Below are positions 1 to 5,189 of a DNA stretch of 5,189 bases, one piece after another. The notes beneath the pieces were generated by a model. That model was not told the DNA's origin, ran no database searches, and saw nothing but the letters and a program-made list of their open reading frames with translations. Within the stretch, counting starts at the first letter, position 1, and every line of letters starts with the position of its first letter. Where the stretch lies: the NCBI GenBank assembly GCA_048882505.1, contig JBHLRO010000064.1, positions 1 to 5,189 on the forward strand. Reading direction: 5' to 3'. The translations under genes and the position numbers were made by a program. Origin of the DNA: Candidatus Thorarchaeota archaeon. Lineage in GTDB: Archaea > Asgardarchaeota > Heimdallarchaeia > Hodarchaeales > Hodarchaeaceae.

Positions 1-53
1 ATGATATAGCGTCCAACCTTGATACTTCCAACCTTTTTGGGTTCATAGGCCAT
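1..53 (-). CDS. eif5a: Archaeal translation factor aIF5A (eIF5A/EF-P family), N-terminal 17 codons; runs off the left edge
   Basis: Minus strand from ATG at 53 reads MAYEPKKVGSIKVGRYI. This matches the aIF5A N-terminal pattern (V/A)G(S/E)(L/I)K(V/E)GxY(I/V) that precedes IDGEPC and the hypusine loop. GGTGA lies 7 nt upstream. The diagnostic GKHG motif is outside the window. Confidence 0.78.
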   Translation of the reverse strand, partial: MAYEPKKVGSIKVGRYI

Positions 54-60
54 TTATAAA

Positions 61-65
61 TCACC
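61..65 (-). promoter_or_regulatory. Shine-Dalgarno site (GGTGA) of the aIF5A-like gene
   Basis: The minus strand reads GGTGA-TTTATAA-ATG. GGTGA is part of the archaeal GGAGGTGA consensus and the spacing is 7 nt. Confidence 0.6.
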
Positions 66-299
66 AGTATAGCAGATCAAATTTTGAAATCGACCCCTTA
101 GTCTCGAAGAGACTTGTGCGCAAATATTTCATGATCTCAAAACCATATCAGCGTTATTAAGCTTATGCCTCTCCCCCCACAGCAATATTAAAATCTTTCT
201 CGAGCATTTCGATATTTCACACCCAGGACTAATCCAACGTCTTATACAAGTTAAAGGGTTGAAGAGTAGTTAAAAGGTTATTGAGCTAGTATTGAGAAG

Positions 300-711
300 C
301 TACACAATACGGCCATGGGTCATATGGTACTTTCTGAGTTGTCTATCTGTCCAGTGGCCATATTTAGCTTCAGCCTGCGCTAAGACCTGCGTGAGCTTGA
401 TCGGCTGGCCTTGGAGCTGCTCGTAGCTCGTCGGATGCCCAGTCGGGGTTTTGATTCGGCACCAGTTCCCGAGTCCTATACGGAACTCGATCCTTCTTGT
501 CCTTCTCTTGTACCATTTTTTCCTGGGTTTTTGGTATCCTAAGGAAGACTTGGCGCCCTTGCTCCCACAGCTTCTTCACAAACCGCCAGCTACGGGTATT
601 GAGTAGATACCCCTCGTAAATGCTTTCGGTCTTTCTATATTGTTTCACTGTCTTCCAATACAGCTTCTTTTCTTTAATGTCCTGCTTTTCTTCCTTGGTG
701 AGGTATTTCAT
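300..711 (-). pseudogene. Frameshifted gene for a basic hypothetical protein (about 136 aa when repaired)
   Basis: The track ORF 370-711 is protein-like up to ...VFLRIPK. A +1 shift at the A5 run (528-532) gives PRKKWYKRRTRRIEFRIGLGNWCRIKTPTGHPTSYEQLQGQPIKLTQVLAQAEAKYGHWTDRQLRKYHMTHGRIV, ending at TAG 302-300. That second frame is open for about 90 codons without an ATG start. Confidence 0.5.
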
Positions 712-991
712 CGCGGGTGGGTCAATTTGCTGTCTAGAACAAGGTCAGTTAACATTCTGTTTGATTGATCACGACGGGAAGAGAAGGTGTTACAGAAGTC
801 CAAATGATCCGAAAAAATTTAGGAAAACCTCCTCAGAACCGATTGAGTTTTCTTCATCCGTGCAAATTCATCTCCTGTTCTAGCTCAAAGTTAAAATCTT
901 CGGAAAAGCAAATAACACAAGTTTCAACATTTTTGGAGACTTTAAGGTGCCCCGCTTCTGTTCTTTCCCCAATATTTTTTCGTTTAACCAT
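712..991 (-). pseudogene. Possible decayed 5' part of the 300-711 gene, or a separate 45-aa ORF (991-854)
   Basis: ATG at 991 gives MVKRKNIGERTEAGHLKVSKNVETCVICFSEDFNFELEQEMNLHG*RKLNRF*GGFPKFFRIIWTSV. One +1 shift then gives HLLFPS*SIKQNVN*PCSRQQIDPPA, running into M711. All four stops are TGA (854-856, 833-835, 769-771, 745-747). No SD is evident before ATG 711. Confidence 0.3.
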
Positions 992-1011
992 TTAAGCCAC
1001 TTTTTTTCTTC

Positions 1012-1115
1012 TAATTAATATCTCTAAACTTGATTTAATCGGTAGTAATTTGAGATATGATTCAGAATGATAAACAATTCTTTCAAATCTTAATCTTTAT
1101 ATAATTAATATGTCT
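1012..1115. repeat. Direct repeat TAATTAATAT(C/G)TCT at 1012-1025 and 1102-1115
   Basis: The two copies are 13/14 identical and exactly 90 bp apart, in a region of about 22% GC (hand count 33/150 for 991-1140). Confidence 0.5.
1096..1103 (+). promoter_or_regulatory. Putative archaeal TATA box for the 1143 ORF
   Basis: TTTATATA matches TTTAWATA. A start site about 25 nt downstream would fall just before the SD at 1127. Confidence 0.55.
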
Positions 1116-1126
1116 TAAAAACAATA

Positions 1127-1133
1127 GAGGTGA
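1127..1133 (+). promoter_or_regulatory. Shine-Dalgarno site GAGGTGA
   Basis: This is a 7-nt match to GGAGGTGA, 9 nt upstream of ATG 1143. Confidence 0.7.
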
Positions 1134-1142
1134 TTCAATAGC

Positions 1143-1661
1143 ATGAACGCTCAATATTCACAAATCCCATATCCCACCCCATTAGACCTACTTTCAGGGG
1201 TTTTCTATATGGAAGACGAAGGCGCAGAATGGCTGAGCGTGGCATCAATTTTACGACACTTCGACTTAAGCGCTGCGGAATTTGGTTTATTCCTCAGGCA
1301 ATATTGTCGGATGAATGATGATTGGGAGGATTTTCCTTATTTTGACCGTTTTGGGAAACTAACAAATGCTGTATATTCATTTATCCAGTACAAATACGAT
1401 AACCACCTAAATGTCAAACTAAAAGATCAATCTTTTGACGAAATTAAACGTCTACCATTTCCTCAAACCCCATTACGTCCTGAAGCGGTCGTAGAAGGAT
1501 TTGGGGCGGAAAACCGACGCCCTTTACATAAGGAAATTTCCGAAAACTCAAAATTCTTAGAGAATCTCAAGGTTTTTCGCATTAACTATCAGGACCAGCT
1601 TGCACAAGACCCTTTTTTAGATGCCTTATGCACATTCATCCAAAAGGAAGGCCAGGTTTGA
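1143..1661 (+). CDS. Hypothetical protein (172 aa) with one copy of an HFxLSxxxFxxF helical repeat; possibly the N-terminal part of an 876-codon gene
   Basis: The ORF has a strong SD and a TATA box. Residues 36-56 are 12/21 identical to residues 211-231 of the next ORF. It ends in TGA, in frame with the next ORF. Confidence 0.85.
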   Translation: MNAQYSQIPYPTPLDLLSGVFYMEDEGAEWLSVASILRHFDLSAAEFGLFLRQYCRMNDDWEDFPYFDRFGKLTNAVYSFIQYKYDNHLNVKLKDQSFDEIKRLPFPQTPLRPEAVVEGFGAENRRPLHKEISENSKFLENLKVFRINYQDQLAQDPFLDALCTFIQKEGQV

Positions 1662-1667
1662 AATCCC

Positions 1668-3773
1668 ATGCCTCTTGCCAATAAATTCACAGTTAACCCG
1701 CATTTAAATCACGCCACACCGGCAGCCGAGATCCTAATTGGGATTTTAGGTATGCCTCCCTCCTCTGAGCCTAAAGTGGAACGTGTAGCATCTATATTCG
1801 GATTTTTCAGTCGTTTTCACCTCCATGGACGTAAAGGAGAGGATTTCCCACATTTCAAGTTTGGACTGAATGATTTTGTCCATTTCGTATCACAGGTTTG
1901 TGGTAAGAAGTATCTCTCTTATTTATGGAGCAAGAATCCGATCGATTTAGAACAGCTGACTTACCAATATTTAACGATGAAGTATGAACAGGCAATCCTA
2001 CACCTAGATCAACCCCGAGTTCCCATACAATACGAAAAACAACGCCTAAGCCGGTTTTTCGTATTTACCCAAGCGACGAGGAGAGGTTTTGACACCTTCT
2101 TACAAGAACTAGATCTTATTTCATCAACCGAAGGGGGAGTTCGACCTGATGAAGAGACTAATTCGGTAGAAGTAAGGTATCTATTCGCTCTTCGGGAATT
2201 CATGGAAATTGAGCACAAATTAAAGAAGACCTCATCAGAATCCATATTTCATGCATTCATATCTAGAAATCCAGTGGTGGTTGATGAAATCCATAGAATC
2301 CTGAAACATTTTTCCTTAAGCATGTTTGATTTCGGCCTGTTCTTTCGAGAAAGGGCTAGAAGATTATATTATGGAAAATTATCCTCTGAAGATGAGTCAG
2401 AATATCGGACCATTCCTGCAAGTATTGTTGTACAGATTCTGTTTCAGTTTTTAGATTTCATAATCCGAGACAGGGCATATCGCTATTATCGCCTTGCGGC
2501 TAAGTCAGTTCCGAGTCTTAAAATAGAGCAAGCAAGCATTTTTCTTACAGACTATGACCTTGCAGATCCTATACCCATTCTGGAGCGGATTTTAAAGTTT
2601 AACATGTATAATAGAGGAAGTCGCGGTTGGCTGTGGAAGTCAAAAGACGAAAACCAAGGCTCCCCCATTCAAGAACTCATCTTCGAGGAAATATACCGTC
2701 ACCCGAAACCATTCCAAGATTTAACAGAAGTATTCCAAACTTACAAAGATAAATTTGCTTATTTTCAAAAAATCCTTATCGATAATAGTGTCGAGATGCT
2801 GGCCTTCCTAAATACCATCAAAGAAAAACACCCCAGAGTGAAAAATGATGAATTCATGATTAAACTAGGAAATTTTGTGAAAGATAGATGTAAACGGGAA
2901 AGGATCCTAAGTTTGTTGCCCTCGCATCTTTCCTCTCAACACGTGACCCTTATTGAGTCATTGGACTCCCCATATCCTCTACATAAGCTTATTTATGATC
3001 TAAGATATCATGATATCCAACTACTGAGTCTTAATGAATACGAATTTAGAAGAAAGTACTCATTACCTGCAGGTCTTACTAAGGATCAACTAAAAACTTT
3101 AATTTATTTCGTCTTTCTCGATCATCGTCCTGTTCATGCAGCAGGTATCGTTCAATTCCTCAGTGAAGTAAATTTCCTCAGTAAAGTGATTTCTAAGGGA
3201 ATTATCACTCAGCTTCTGATAGAAATGGTTGCGGAGGGATTAATGACTACTCTCCATCCTGAAGAACCTCCTAACTTGAGACAATACCTATTTGTTACCG
3301 ATGGAACCCAATGGAATGTCTCCCTAGAGCCAAGCAAAATGATACAAGGGGATGACCATTCCATACTACGGGGAATTGTTTTTCCTCTACCTCTGATAAA
3401 TGCTTTATCGACACAACAGAAATTTCTCCTATATATTCTGTCCGAGGAATTGAAATACAAAGACCTACCTCTCCTCAAGAAGGAGGGGATCCAACATTAC
3501 TACCAGACCTACTGCAATGCCTACGGCCAACCAGCTATTCTAAGGAGCAAATTCCATAATACAATGGATCTTCTCGAGAGATTGGACTTGATTTATAGAC
3601 CTACTCCCATACCTCCAGAGAAATATAAGAAATTTATTACTACTAACCCTCTCCTCCGCGATGTCATCACTCTGGCACAATTTAGGGACCAGCTATGTAA
3701 AGATGGCATTAAAGGTTTGCAGTTTCACCGAACTTTGGGCATTGCGGGTAAATCGTATCTGAAAACTCATTAA
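1668..3773 (+). CDS. Hypothetical protein (701 aa) with N-terminal helical repeats and C-terminal tandem winged-helix-like domains; putative DNA-binding protein
   Basis: This is an uninterrupted 701-codon ORF in low-GC DNA. Repeat copies lie at about aa 17-111 and 205-267, a wHTH-like segment at aa 470-544, and an Orc1/Cdc6 C-terminal WH-like segment at aa 577-660. No Walker A or B motif was found. Confidence 0.92.
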   Translation: MPLANKFTVNPHLNHATPAAEILIGILGMPPSSEPKVERVASIFGFFSRFHLHGRKGEDFPHFKFGLNDFVHFVSQVCGKKYLSYLWSKNPIDLEQLTYQYLTMKYEQAILHLDQPRVPIQYEKQRLSRFFVFTQATRRGFDTFLQELDLISSTEGGVRPDEETNSVEVRYLFALREFMEIEHKLKKTSSESIFHAFISRNPVVVDEIHRILKHFSLSMFDFGLFFRERARRLYYGKLSSEDESEYRTIPASIVVQILFQFLDFIIRDRAYRYYRLAAKSVPSLKIEQASIFLTDYDLADPIPILERILKFNMYNRGSRGWLWKSKDENQGSPIQELIFEEIYRHPKPFQDLTEVFQTYKDKFAYFQKILIDNSVEMLAFLNTIKEKHPRVKNDEFMIKLGNFVKDRCKRERILSLLPSHLSSQHVTLIESLDSPYPLHKLIYDLRYHDIQLLSLNEYEFRRKYSLPAGLTKDQLKTLIYFVFLDHRPVHAAGIVQFLSEVNFLSKVISKGIITQLLIEMVAEGLMTTLHPEEPPNLRQYLFVTDGTQWNVSLEPSKMIQGDDHSILRGIVFPLPLINALSTQQKFLLYILSEELKYKDLPLLKKEGIQHYYQTYCNAYGQPAILRSKFHNTMDLLERLDLIYRPTPIPPEKYKKFITTNPLLRDVITLAQFRDQLCKDGIKGLQFHRTLGIAGKSYLKTH
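3075..3299 (+). other. Winged helix-turn-helix-like domain 1 (PadR/MarR-like pattern), aa 470-544
   Basis: LTKDQLKTLIYFVFLDHRPVHAAGIVQFLSE...ISKGIITQLLIEMVAEGLMTT...PNLRQYLFVT follows the wHTH layout, including the Lxx(L/M)xxxGL(I/M) helix end and an RxYxxT-type wing strand. Pattern recognition only. Confidence 0.5.
3396..3647 (+). other. Orc1/Cdc6 C-terminal winged-helix-like domain, aa 577-660
   Basis: INALSTQQKFLLYIL...IQHYYQTYCNAYGQPAILRSKFHNTMDLLERLDLIYR parallels the Cdc6_C pattern as I recall it: IxxLPxQQKLxLxAI...VYxxYxxLCxxxGxxPLxxRRFxxxLxxLExLGLI. Confidence 0.62.
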
Positions 3774-3780
3774 AACATGG

Positions 3781-3791
3781 CGATTGAATCA
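3781..3791 (-). repeat. TGATTCAATCG, inverted copy of a motif also found at 1031-1041 and 1131-1141
   Basis: The three copies are TGATTTAATCG (1031), TGATTCAATAG (1131) and, on the reverse strand, TGATTCAATCG (3791-3781). The core GATT-N-AATC is palindromic. Confidence 0.45.
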
Positions 3792-3803
3792 TGGAACCAG
3801 ATA

Positions 3804-4638
3804 TTAAGATACGATCTCCCCGTTGTTGCCGTGTCTATGTCCCTTGATACAGCAATGGATCGCAAACCTGGCCTCCGTGGGCGTTGCGCCGTTGTCGAGG
3901 AGAATGATTTCGCGTCGAATCTCTGTCCCCTCACACCACGGACAACGGTCTGTATCGGGGGATACCGAAGTGCGACAATGTGGGCACTGGACGAAGAGGG
4001 TGAAATCCTTCCCCTTCCTGAGTTCCTTGATGAGATCTAACGGAAATGGGATTGCTTCGTCCCCCTACAACCGAACAATCTCACTCACCATGTGCGGCGG
4101 AAGCTCGATGTCCATGCATTGTAACAACCGAGTGAATCCCACTGCATACACTTGGTGATCCTTCGTCTCCTCAATCAGCGTCTAATCACTGGTTTCTCCA
4201 TTATATATGCCTTGTCGTCGGTGGGGTCGAAGTAATAACGCCCCTAAATTCTGAGATCCCTTTGGAGGGCACCGTTTGGATTAAACTGGATATCCAGGAG
4301 AGGCGAGAATGTGAACTCTCGGGACACAATCGAGTTTGAATGAGGATTTAGCCAAATCTGTCGGTCGTAATAACATAATCATTTACCCTCTATGTCGTGA
4401 TCCAACCTCTCGTTTTCGGGATATGAGGTAACTAAAACTAGAAGGACAAAACGTCATAGATTTCGTGACTATGAACAATATGGGAAGTGATGTATAGAAT
4501 TAGCTTTCATTCTTTTGTTAGTATAAAAGCATGTGTTGGAAATGGGGGTAGAAAATATGGTGTTTCATTATGATGTTGTTTCGAAATCTCCGTTTCCAAG
4601 TTTTTGATTTTTTACTTGAAAGTATGATACTTAACCAT
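3804..4638 (-). pseudogene. Disrupted gene for a roughly 278-aa protein with a C-terminal C4 zinc ribbon
   Basis: The path runs from ATG 4638 to TAA 3806-3804. It needs two -1 shifts (T4 run at 4448-4451; about 4178-4185). Internal stops are TAA 4612-14, TGA 4507-09, TGA 4379-81, TAG 4244-46 and TAG 4065-67. The last 86 codons are open: GDEAIPFPLDLIKELRKGKDFTLFVQCPHCRTSVSPDTDRCPWCEGTEIRREIILLDNG...GEIVS. The 3' half is much better supported than the 5' part. Confidence 0.6.
3933..3986 (-). other. Zinc ribbon motif CPHC-x10-CPWC
   Basis: Direct translation gives CPHCRTSVSPDTDRCPWC, the spacing typical of zinc-ribbon/DZR-type domains. Confidence 0.7.
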
Positions 4639-4642
4639 ATAT

Positions 4643-5059
4643 TTATGGGATTCTTATGCCTTCTGTTTGCGATTTTTCCAATATCTGTCTGGGAATCACA
4701 GATTACCCAATCCCCATACCGTTGGGAACAGTAATTTCGGATAAACGTGGTAGCCGTGGTCACATACTGGTTCCGTGTCGGTAAATTGGTCACCTCCCAG
4801 TGCTGAAGCACCCCAATAAAATCTGTCACATATTTGCGGTACTGGTCGGGGTACTGGCTCACCACCTGCGGAAGGCGCTCTACCAACAGTTGCAGAAGCC
4901 GCCATTTACGTTCCACGTACCAACCCACCAAAAACTACCCTGATCCATGACTGCCCCCCTAAAATATTTTACCAAATAGTGGAGTGAAAGTGACCAAAAT
5001 CGCGAAATCTCTAAGAAGAACTCCTCTTTGGGCACCTAACGGGTCAAACATGATTTCAT
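4643..5059 (-). pseudogene. Disrupted gene for a roughly 135-140 aa hypothetical protein, upstream of and probably co-transcribed with the zinc-ribbon gene
   Basis: MKSCLTR*VPKEEFFLEISRFWSLSLHYLVKYFRGAVMDQGSF is followed by a -1 shift at T5 (4930-4934). It continues LVGWYVERKWRLLQLLVERLPQVVSQYPDQYRKYVTDF...WVICDS (the core of track ORF 4518-4931). A +1 shift at C3 (4691-4693) gives RQILEKSQTEGIRIP, ending at TAA 4645-4643, only 4 nt before ATG 4638. Confidence 0.42.
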
Positions 5060-5112
5060 GGGTAGCTATTTTAAATCTTAGAAGCTTAAAGGCTCGATGG
5101 AACCGTACTAGC

Positions 5113-5189
5113 TCAAAACACCCTGAAACCATGCGCATTTGCGGTCCGTCGGATTCGTTCTCTAAATTCCCCTTCAGGGACATTATAAT
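5113..5189 (-). CDS. Possible 3' end of a gene entering from the right edge
   Basis: The frame from 5187 reads YNVPEGEFRERIRRTANAHGFRVF, then TGA 5115-5113. This looks more protein-like than the overlapping track ORF 4959-5183, but it is too short to identify. Confidence 0.3.
   Translation of the reverse strand, partial: YNVPEGEFRERIRRTANAHGFRVF

Follow-up and report, generated by a model that had tools for sequence, protein, structure and literature searches.

An orphan archaeal protein with a probable Orc1/Cdc6-type winged-helix core and no detectable AAA+ module, encoded on a strain-variable chromosomal island

A tandem winged-helix (WH) protein, WhiP, specifies oriC3 of Sulfolobus islandicus by itself (PMC3607249). 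Orc1-2 of Saccharolobus islandicus, a paralogue of the Orc1/Cdc6 initiators, is described as a global DNA-damage regulator (PMC12490963); it illustrates that the WH of the Orc1/Cdc6 type can serve to regulate genes, which is the role that we favour for the protein described here. The stretch under study (hereafter, the window) is an entire contig of 5,189 bp, C64, from the genome (4.3 Mb, 83 contigs, 41% G+C) of a Candidatus Thorarchaeota archaeon, an Asgard archaeon of Hodarchaeales type; its + strand carries two clean open reading frames (ORFs), P0002 and P0001. P0001 is a 701-amino-acid (aa) orphan protein that lacks a detectable AAA+ module and probably contains, at aa 577-642, the helix-turn-helix (HTH) core of an Orc1/Cdc6-type WH. 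Its gene lies on an island that is present in part of the sampled population.

P0001 resembles the Orc1/Cdc6 proteins in that aa 577-642 fit the three helices of their WH, including LxxxQKxxLYxx and YxxxCxxxG, in the register of the Asgard proteins. Unlike them, it is without the AAA+ base, the lid and a recognisable Gly/Arg-rich wing hairpin; its WH lies at residues 577-660 of a helical protein of 701 aa (or of 876 codons), whereas that of Orc1/Cdc6 stands at the end of about 410 aa, and its gene adjoins neither an origin-like region nor polD. Orc1-2 keeps the full AAA+-lid-WH architecture, unlike P0001, with the WH core only. With WhiP (Cdt1-related, from Sulfolobales) and with RepA, RepE and pi of iteron plasmids, P0001 may have in common an ATPase-less WH-WH arrangement and a location on DNA of accessory origin. 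Unlike these proteins, P0001 shows no CDT1 or Rep_3 profile similarity and has no AT-rich repeats or iterons in or beside its gene; it exceeds them in length two- to threefold and carries a large scaffold at its N-terminus, and whereas WhiP is conserved across orders, P0001 is a singleton. It falls outside the Rep_3 and Cdt1/WhiP families, and the common ground with them is the use of WH domains only. Nearest by features (0.91) are short stand-alone clusters of the Cdc6 C-terminal WH in the ESM Atlas (102-160 aa; archaeal, bacterial and eukaryotic), which show that a WH detached from AAA+ exists in databases, although some of these entries may be gene fragments; they are without the helical extension of P0001, and neither an alignment nor an E-value links them to it. 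In P0001 the probable Cdc6_C-type WH stands behind about 570 residues of novel helical sequence.

Candidate winged-helix modules and the search for an ATPase

An earlier reading of the window, made from the sequence only, had picked out positions 3075-3647, which do correspond to aa 470-660 of the ORF at 1668..3773, as a generic winged helix-turn-helix (wHTH) followed by a Cdc6 C-terminal WH. When P0001 was scanned with Pfam at E <= 10 (E-values count all 24,736 models), a single family was matched, PF09079 (Cdc6_C), at aa 577-642. The match to the full-length protein had an E-value of 3.2e-4 (21.1 bits) and that to aa 460-701 alone an E-value of 7.8e-5 (23 bits), under the curated gathering cut-off of 25.1 bits; a six-frame search of the genome with Cdc6_C gave 24.2 bits at nucleotides 3396-3593, and 35-99 bits at the four host Orc1/Cdc6 genes. 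A home-made hidden Markov model (HMM) of 34 Asgard Orc1/Cdc6 proteins aligned aa 577-643 to its WH part and nothing else, and 1 in 300 local shuffles attained the real score for that part. Of the 12 best local alignments in pairwise phmmer against Orc1/Cdc6 proteins, 11 fell within the WH domain of the target, and the top alignments displayed one register, LPLINALSTQQKFLLYIL...IQHYYQTYCNAYG over LEVLRTLPLQQKLVLYAV...VQDVYGDFCEQLG. In the ESM Atlas, the calibration of which was not made for parts of proteins, aa 460-701 scored 0.91 (191 of 256 features in common), and the ten best named matches were all Cdc6_C or origin recognition complex (ORC) WH clusters. The wing, expected at aa 643-660 (Cdc6_C profile positions 69-96), was matched in none of the profiles, and a by-eye comparison found in this segment no Gly/Arg-rich wing motif like that of the four host Orc1/Cdc6 proteins; the residues concerned, YRPTPIPPEKYKKFITTN, could form a hairpin. 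Because the Pfam, HMM, phmmer and ESM Atlas comparisons cover the three helices and leave the wing uncovered, we rate the HTH core at aa 577-642 as probable; the sequence-only reading had extended the domain to aa 660, and this last part found no counterpart.

The evidence for a first wHTH at aa 470-544 is weak. Pfam matched nothing there at E <= 10, and the profiles of wHTH regulator families (PadR, ArsR, MarR, Fur) likewise gave no match at that threshold; the likeness is one of fold only, at low confidence. Atlas features of the region scored 0.82 to ArsR/Fur/BlaI clusters, and its low-confidence Atlas model superposed on PadR-type WH domains with template modelling (TM) scores of 0.61-0.65. 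An AlphaFold2 (AF2) single-sequence model, at a predicted local distance difference test (pLDDT) score of 43, had there the order alpha-beta-alpha-alpha-beta-beta, which is that of a wHTH; the top Foldseek matches of this model were nearly all wHTH proteins, but with E-values of 0.12 or more. The PADLOC model DpdD gave a weak match at aa 470-521 (E 0.003, 14.9 bits). Foldseek returned no match in the PDB at E <= 0.001, and sequence searches of the PDB found none. The wHTH-type leads, which span aa 455-562, are coherent, and they remain leads; both AF2 models are of low confidence (pLDDT 37 and 43), and no fold is demonstrated by them. A second WH-like module may precede the Cdc6-type core.

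No Walker A pattern ([GA]x4GK[ST]) occurs in P0001 or P0002, and no AAA+ or lid family of Pfam was matched by P0001 at E <= 10. Sub-HMMs for the AAA+ domain and for the Cdc6 lid scored P0001 like shuffled sequences, of which 19 and 23 of 300, respectively, attained the real score. A degenerate AAA+ domain or lid within aa 280-570 had been raised by a structural overlay in the Atlas and was rejected, the HMM and shuffle tests giving it no support; the overlay itself, which sets aa 276-701 against complete Orc1/Cdc6 models at a target-based TM of about 0.4, comes from a model with pLDDT 0.44 and was not counted. The earlier statement that Walker A and B motifs are missing is thus upheld as far as the letters can tell, and P0001 lacks a detectable AAA+ module. 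With no ATPase or lid detected, a WH match under the cut-off and no adjoining origin, P0001 stands outside the Orc1/Cdc6 family. Four canonical Orc1/Cdc6 genes with intact P-loops and Walker A motifs are present elsewhere in the genome (on contigs C24 and C12, and two on C2), so that the host has no need of P0001 as an initiator. What survives of the architecture first proposed is an Orc1/Cdc6-type WH core in a long AAA+-less protein, probably with a second wHTH before it.

Reading frame, upstream region and chromosomal island

The ORF of P0001 is real. A 701-codon frame would stay open by chance at 41% G+C with an estimated probability of about 1e-19, and the codon score of P0001 (0.048, in frame 1 only) exceeds the 95th percentile of the off-frames; P0002 has a host-like score of 0.087, and no host-like coding signal was found by codon score in the flanks of the pair. 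The two ORFs are in the same frame, the ATG of P0001 starting 6 nucleotides (nt; two codons) after the TGA that ends P0002, and with this TGA read through they form one frame of 876 codons. The source-run contig is identical to the window across 48-5179, this TGA included. TGA is the stop of 546 of the 1705 long ORFs in the genome. Alternative genetic codes (table 4, or TGA as W plus TAG as Q) were tried and rejected, as the flanks then yielded no convincing genes, and TGA and TAG are ordinary stops here. Selenocysteine at the TGA was likewise discarded: the genome has a tRNA-SeC gene, but the window has no Rfam match of the SECIS type and the codon no redox-type context. P0002 and the N-terminal region of P0001 have a motif in common, ILxHFxLSxxxFGLFxR...EDFPxF, which is 24 to about 40 residues long and identical at 12 of 24 positions (E 1e-5 to 6e-5); P0001 holds it twice, at aa 41-66 and aa 208-231. 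Both proteins are thus made of a common module, be it as a single gene split by a nonsense mutation or as a pair. A low-confidence model predicts the N-terminal 455 or so residues of P0001 to be helical; the C-terminal third holds the two WH-like modules.

Searches for relatives returned P0001 itself and nothing else, whether in a word-indexed set of 5.8 billion proteins, by exhaustive phmmer on 1.84 billion cluster representatives, or by six-frame searches of 22 genomes from its family and of 83 from its class. In about 15 billion proteins overall, neither P0001 nor P0002 had a relative. No relatives of P0001 were found in IMG/VR or among plasmids and phages, the PHROGs and NCBIfam libraries gave no useful match, and P0002 had no homologues in the word-indexed set. 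A kinship of P0001 with the P0003 family, of which a fragment lies downstream, was considered and dropped (hhalign probability 0.2).

The region upstream of P0002 had been taken for an AT-rich repeat region. It is indeed rich in AT, with about 32% G+C over the 300 nt at 901-1200, but its repeats come down to one pair of 17-nt copies, the excess of which over chance is not demonstrated. Across the window no repeat family had more than two copies and no iterons were found; in 992-1142 there were no inverted pairs like origin recognition boxes (ORBs), and no ORB array adjoins or lies within the P0001 gene. A bracket motif, TGATTYAATMG, defined post hoc, was rejected as not significant: it matched three times where 0.73 matches were expected, a count that 10 of 200 shuffles also reached. 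The region holds a TATA-like box and a strong Shine-Dalgarno (SD)-like sequence (Table 1), spaced as in the usual archaeal layout of promoter and ribosome-binding site, and because of this spacing the region looks like a divergent promoter region and not like an origin. Nothing marks 992-1142 as an origin. No SD-like sequence was found at the usual distance before the ATG of P0001.

The left end of the window places the contig in the chromosome. Window positions 1-77 are the reverse complement of positions 1-77 of contig C15, and positions 53..1 are the first 18 codons of aIF5A, the gene of which lies on C15 at 25-462. Five congeners have aIF5A next to psmA and the exosome operon, in divergent orientation and about 100-450 nt away; in the host genome psmA ends contig C42. 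End overlaps of 77-mers join C42 > C44 (9.5 kb) > C62 (5.4 kb, reversed) on one side and C64 (reversed) > C15 on the other; the assembly has a gap from C62 to C64, and the size of the island is a lower bound. Contigs from sequencing runs X1 and X2 depart from the window at position 81 and continue into the end of C42. The probable source run had a depth of 20.3 on C64 versus 36.7 on the aIF5A flank, and a 78-nt contig (depth 13.2) leaves at position 81 and reaches the end of C42. At the empty site, 14 nt, TGTTAGTCTATCGT (in the psmA-to-aIF5A direction), stand in place of the island. A second sample of the same study had the empty-site form at depth 21 versus 2.6-5.7 for the island pieces, and raw-read run X3, of which about 1 in 100 was read, had almost no reads on the window.

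From the flank overlaps, the depths and the empty-site contig it follows that C64 forms one end of a strain-variable chromosomal island. The island measures at least 20 kb, lies between psmA and aIF5A, is absent from five congeners and is present in part of the sampled population. The island-free haplotype has a C>A change (+ strand) at window position 50, by which codon 2 of aIF5A turns from Ala to Ser (Ser is also found there in 3 of the 5 congeners checked), and because of this difference the island-bearing and island-free forms are distinct strains. Along the roughly 20 kb assembled (C44, C62 and C64) there was no integrase, MCM or other helicase, or primase, and no target duplication was recognisable at the island ends. 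Besides the genes listed in Table 1, C44 and C62 encode a Cdc48-N fragment and several unknown proteins. The earlier suggestion that the gene lies on an accessory element is supported by its place on a strain-variable island; the island is a strain-variable region at the least, if not an insertion, and its self-replicating or integrative nature is not demonstrated. This context is the firmest new fact about the locus. A polymorphic island with its empty site recovered amounts to a clean natural comparison of with and without.

Weighing the explanations

We tentatively regard P0001 as a lineage-specific (so far singleton) ATPase-less DNA-binding protein on a variable island, with a regulatory or occluding role, and give this a probability of about 0.45. 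Its second WH-like module would be an Orc1/Cdc6-type HTH core, probably taken out of an initiator gene and joined to a helical scaffold unrelated to it, and the N-terminal two thirds of P0001 together with P0002 would be built of the repeated helical motif. To judge by the role of the fold in Orc1/Cdc6 and in wHTH regulators, the WH modules may bind double-stranded DNA, and the helical repeat part could serve for self-association or for binding a partner. P0001 might then act as a passive site-specific binder that either regulates genes of the island or of the host or serves as a chromatin-like or occluding factor. Loading a helicase in the manner of Orc1/Cdc6 takes a nucleotide switch, which P0001 lacks, and a helicase-loading initiator it would therefore not be. 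Transcription of the cassette would probably be driven by the TATA-like box, with a start predicted near 1125-1135, P0002 would be translated from GAGGTGA, and P0001 would be translated by re-initiation past the TGA, unless the two were formerly one protein of 876 codons. Several observations weigh against this account. The Cdc6_C match lies under the Pfam gathering score and covers the three helices but not the wing; the two AF2 single-sequence models are of low confidence, and therefore no fold is demonstrated; no target DNA motif has been identified for P0001; and because there is no homologue, conservation and purifying selection cannot be demonstrated. In addition, the codon score of P0001 ranks no higher than the 6th percentile among 994 long ORFs of the host, and this score, the in-frame TGA and the wrecked neighbours would fit a gene that is already decaying.

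That last possibility is a rival explanation in its own right: an 876-codon gene of an incoming element, struck by the nonsense mutation at 1659, would now be non-functional DNA going the way of its neighbours. A lone in-frame TGA separating two ORFs with a common repeat motif is what such decay would leave, and the ATG of P0001 without an SD-like sequence at the usual distance, the low codon score, the state of all other genes on the contig (fragments, or bearing stops) and the singleton status of P0001 in all databases searched point the same way. Yet 701 and 172 codons have stayed open with no further stop or frameshift, whereas the flanks are riddled with them; the frame-1 codon score is above the off-frame range, and an ATG 6 nt past a stop is a common arrangement for re-initiation. 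We hold decay to be unlikely, though it has a real share of the probability. It is less probable again, but still to be reckoned with, that there is no WH at all and that the Cdc6_C match is a chance likeness of three amphipathic helices in a helical protein rich in Leu, Ile, Lys and Phe. The sub-threshold score with the wing unaligned, the 3-5 bits given by home-made HMMs, AF2 without a confident fold for the region, the lack of a sequence match in the PDB and an Atlas calibration made for other than protein parts would all be expected of a chance likeness; but the E-value of 3e-4 already spans 24,736 models with no competing family, three differently built comparisons hit the same residues in the same register, and the language-model features agree, the ten best named matches being one family.

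The sequence-only reading had proposed a non-canonical initiator, an ORC competitor or an origin-binding regulator, and this gained nothing from the analysis: there were no iterons or ORBs, no integrase, helicase or primase, and no Rep_3, Cdt1 or WhiP profile. An AAA+-less initiator or origin-binding factor of a mobile element, like WhiP or RepA, or a competitor of the host Orc1/Cdc6, could be argued for from the probable tandem of an Orc1/Cdc6-type WH core with a second wHTH, from the accessory island carried by part of the population and from the precedent of WhiP (PMC3607249). Against such a factor stand the failure of Rep_3, CDT1 and any other initiator profile to match, the lack of iteron or ORB arrays beside or inside the gene, the upstream AT-rich stretch of 150 bp with its promoter-like signals, about 20 kb of assembled island without integrase, MCM or primase, a wing (DNA-contacting in Orc1/Cdc6) that is not recognisable, and the absence of relatives on plasmids, phages and viral contigs; we consider it very improbable. 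Slimmer still are the chances of its most specific form, an initiator-derived WH protein that has shed its ATPase and sits at origins, either as an ATP-independent, WhiP-like initiator of the island or as a decoy against host Orc1/Cdc6, and an initiator role for P0001 is at present unsupported speculation. Were P0001 to act at origins, it would show by a natural case how ATPase-less ORC/Cdt1-like factors can evolve out of Orc1/Cdc6 within the lineage nearest to eukaryotes. Tandem-wHTH proteins are common in defence and DNA-modification cassettes, and P0001 might be the sensor or DNA-binding subunit of an island-borne module of this type. The DpdD match, an SspD-like gene fragment 700 bp upstream and a nuclease of the ERCC4-HhH (helix-hairpin-helix) type at the other end of the island would suit this role; but the match spans only 50 residues at its weak score, the SspD-like neighbour is a 37-codon stub, no working effector (nuclease, ATPase, HEPN, PIN) is fused to P0001 or adjoins it, and the other island proteins match no PADLOC model, and we give the defence role little credence. 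If the favoured account of P0001 as a passive DNA-binding protein is true, the Orc1/Cdc6 WH has been reused without its ATPase, on a large new helical scaffold, in the archaea closest to eukaryotes; WH domains are also the building blocks of eukaryotic origin factors that have no ATPase activity, namely Cdt1 and some ORC subunits. The value of the case is limited: P0001 is a singleton, known from a variable island in a single metagenome-assembled genome, and tells nothing yet about replication.

Feature coordinates and neighbouring gene remnants

Table 1. Positions of the features discussed in the text; the last three rows refer to island contig C44, all others to the window
Feature	Position	Strand	Remarks
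Chromosomal flank	1..81	-	Common to island-bearing and empty-site forms; island boundary after 81
SspD/PAPS-reductase-like C-terminal fragment	300..413	-	About 37 codons, remainder missing or disrupted
AT-rich intergenic region	992..1142	.	Between divergent left gene wreck and P0002, about 150 bp
17-nt direct repeat pair	1012-1028, 1102-1118		88% identity, two copies; excess over chance not demonstrated
TATA-like box	1096-1104		TTTATATAA; basis: sequence read
Shine-Dalgarno-like GAGGTGA	1127-1133		9 nt before ATG 1143
P0002	1143..1661	+	172 aa; orphan ORF, upstream partner of P0001
In-frame TGA	1659..1661	+	Sole stop between P0002 and P0001
P0001	1668..3773	+	701 aa; orphan protein
Candidate first wHTH	3075..3299	+	aa 470-544; lead-level support
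Probable Orc1/Cdc6-type WH, HTH core	3396..3593	+	aa 577-642; Pfam Cdc6_C positions 3-68 of 96, sub-cut-off
Expected wing hairpin	3594..3647	+	aa 643-660 (YRPTPIPPEKYKKFITTN); unmatched by any profile
Zinc-ribbon frame (CPHC...CPWC + His/Cys cluster)	3804..4151	-	Convergent with P0001; in-frame stop
P0003-family N-terminal fragment	4704..4943	-	About 80 codons; full length about 520 aa
Protein without Pfam family (C44)	213-5396	+	1,728 aa
Subtilase (C44)	5328-6470	-	S8, 3e-35
Small ERCC4 + helix-hairpin-helix nuclease (C44)	8692-9363	-	4e-10

Three frames on the - strand flank the cassette. The zinc-ribbon frame is open only with stops read through; its Pfam matches to zinc ribbons are weak (best E 6e-4), it shows no coding-like codon signal, and it is probably a gene wreck. 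The P0003-family fragment lies within a 137-aa ORF at 4518-4931, the sequence of which leaves the family after about 80 residues; by tblastx it is 51% identical to contig C16 over 80 aa, a separate comparison gave 54% identity over query positions 6-75, and a full copy of P0003 is found on C16 at 58687-60255 (-). The family itself has no Pfam family and no PDB relative. It is genus-specific, being found in all 21 congeners but missing from the 61 other genomes of the class, and has 1-9 copies per genome that are often clustered (five on one contig of congener G019), with paralogues 20-29% identical.

The SspD/PAPS-reductase-like fragment at the left was 62-76% identical by tblastx to sequences on C56, C11 and C2. 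Its intact copy on C56 (281-1117, -) is matched by PADLOC SspD at 1.1e-10 and weakly by Pfam PAPS_reduct. Further copies of this kind lie at C2:101142-101627, at C11:118679-118975 and near 216.4 kb on C2. On C2 and C11 the SspD-like gene directly adjoins a gene of about 280 aa that by eye is like PCNA or another sliding clamp, the two forming a repeated two-gene module.

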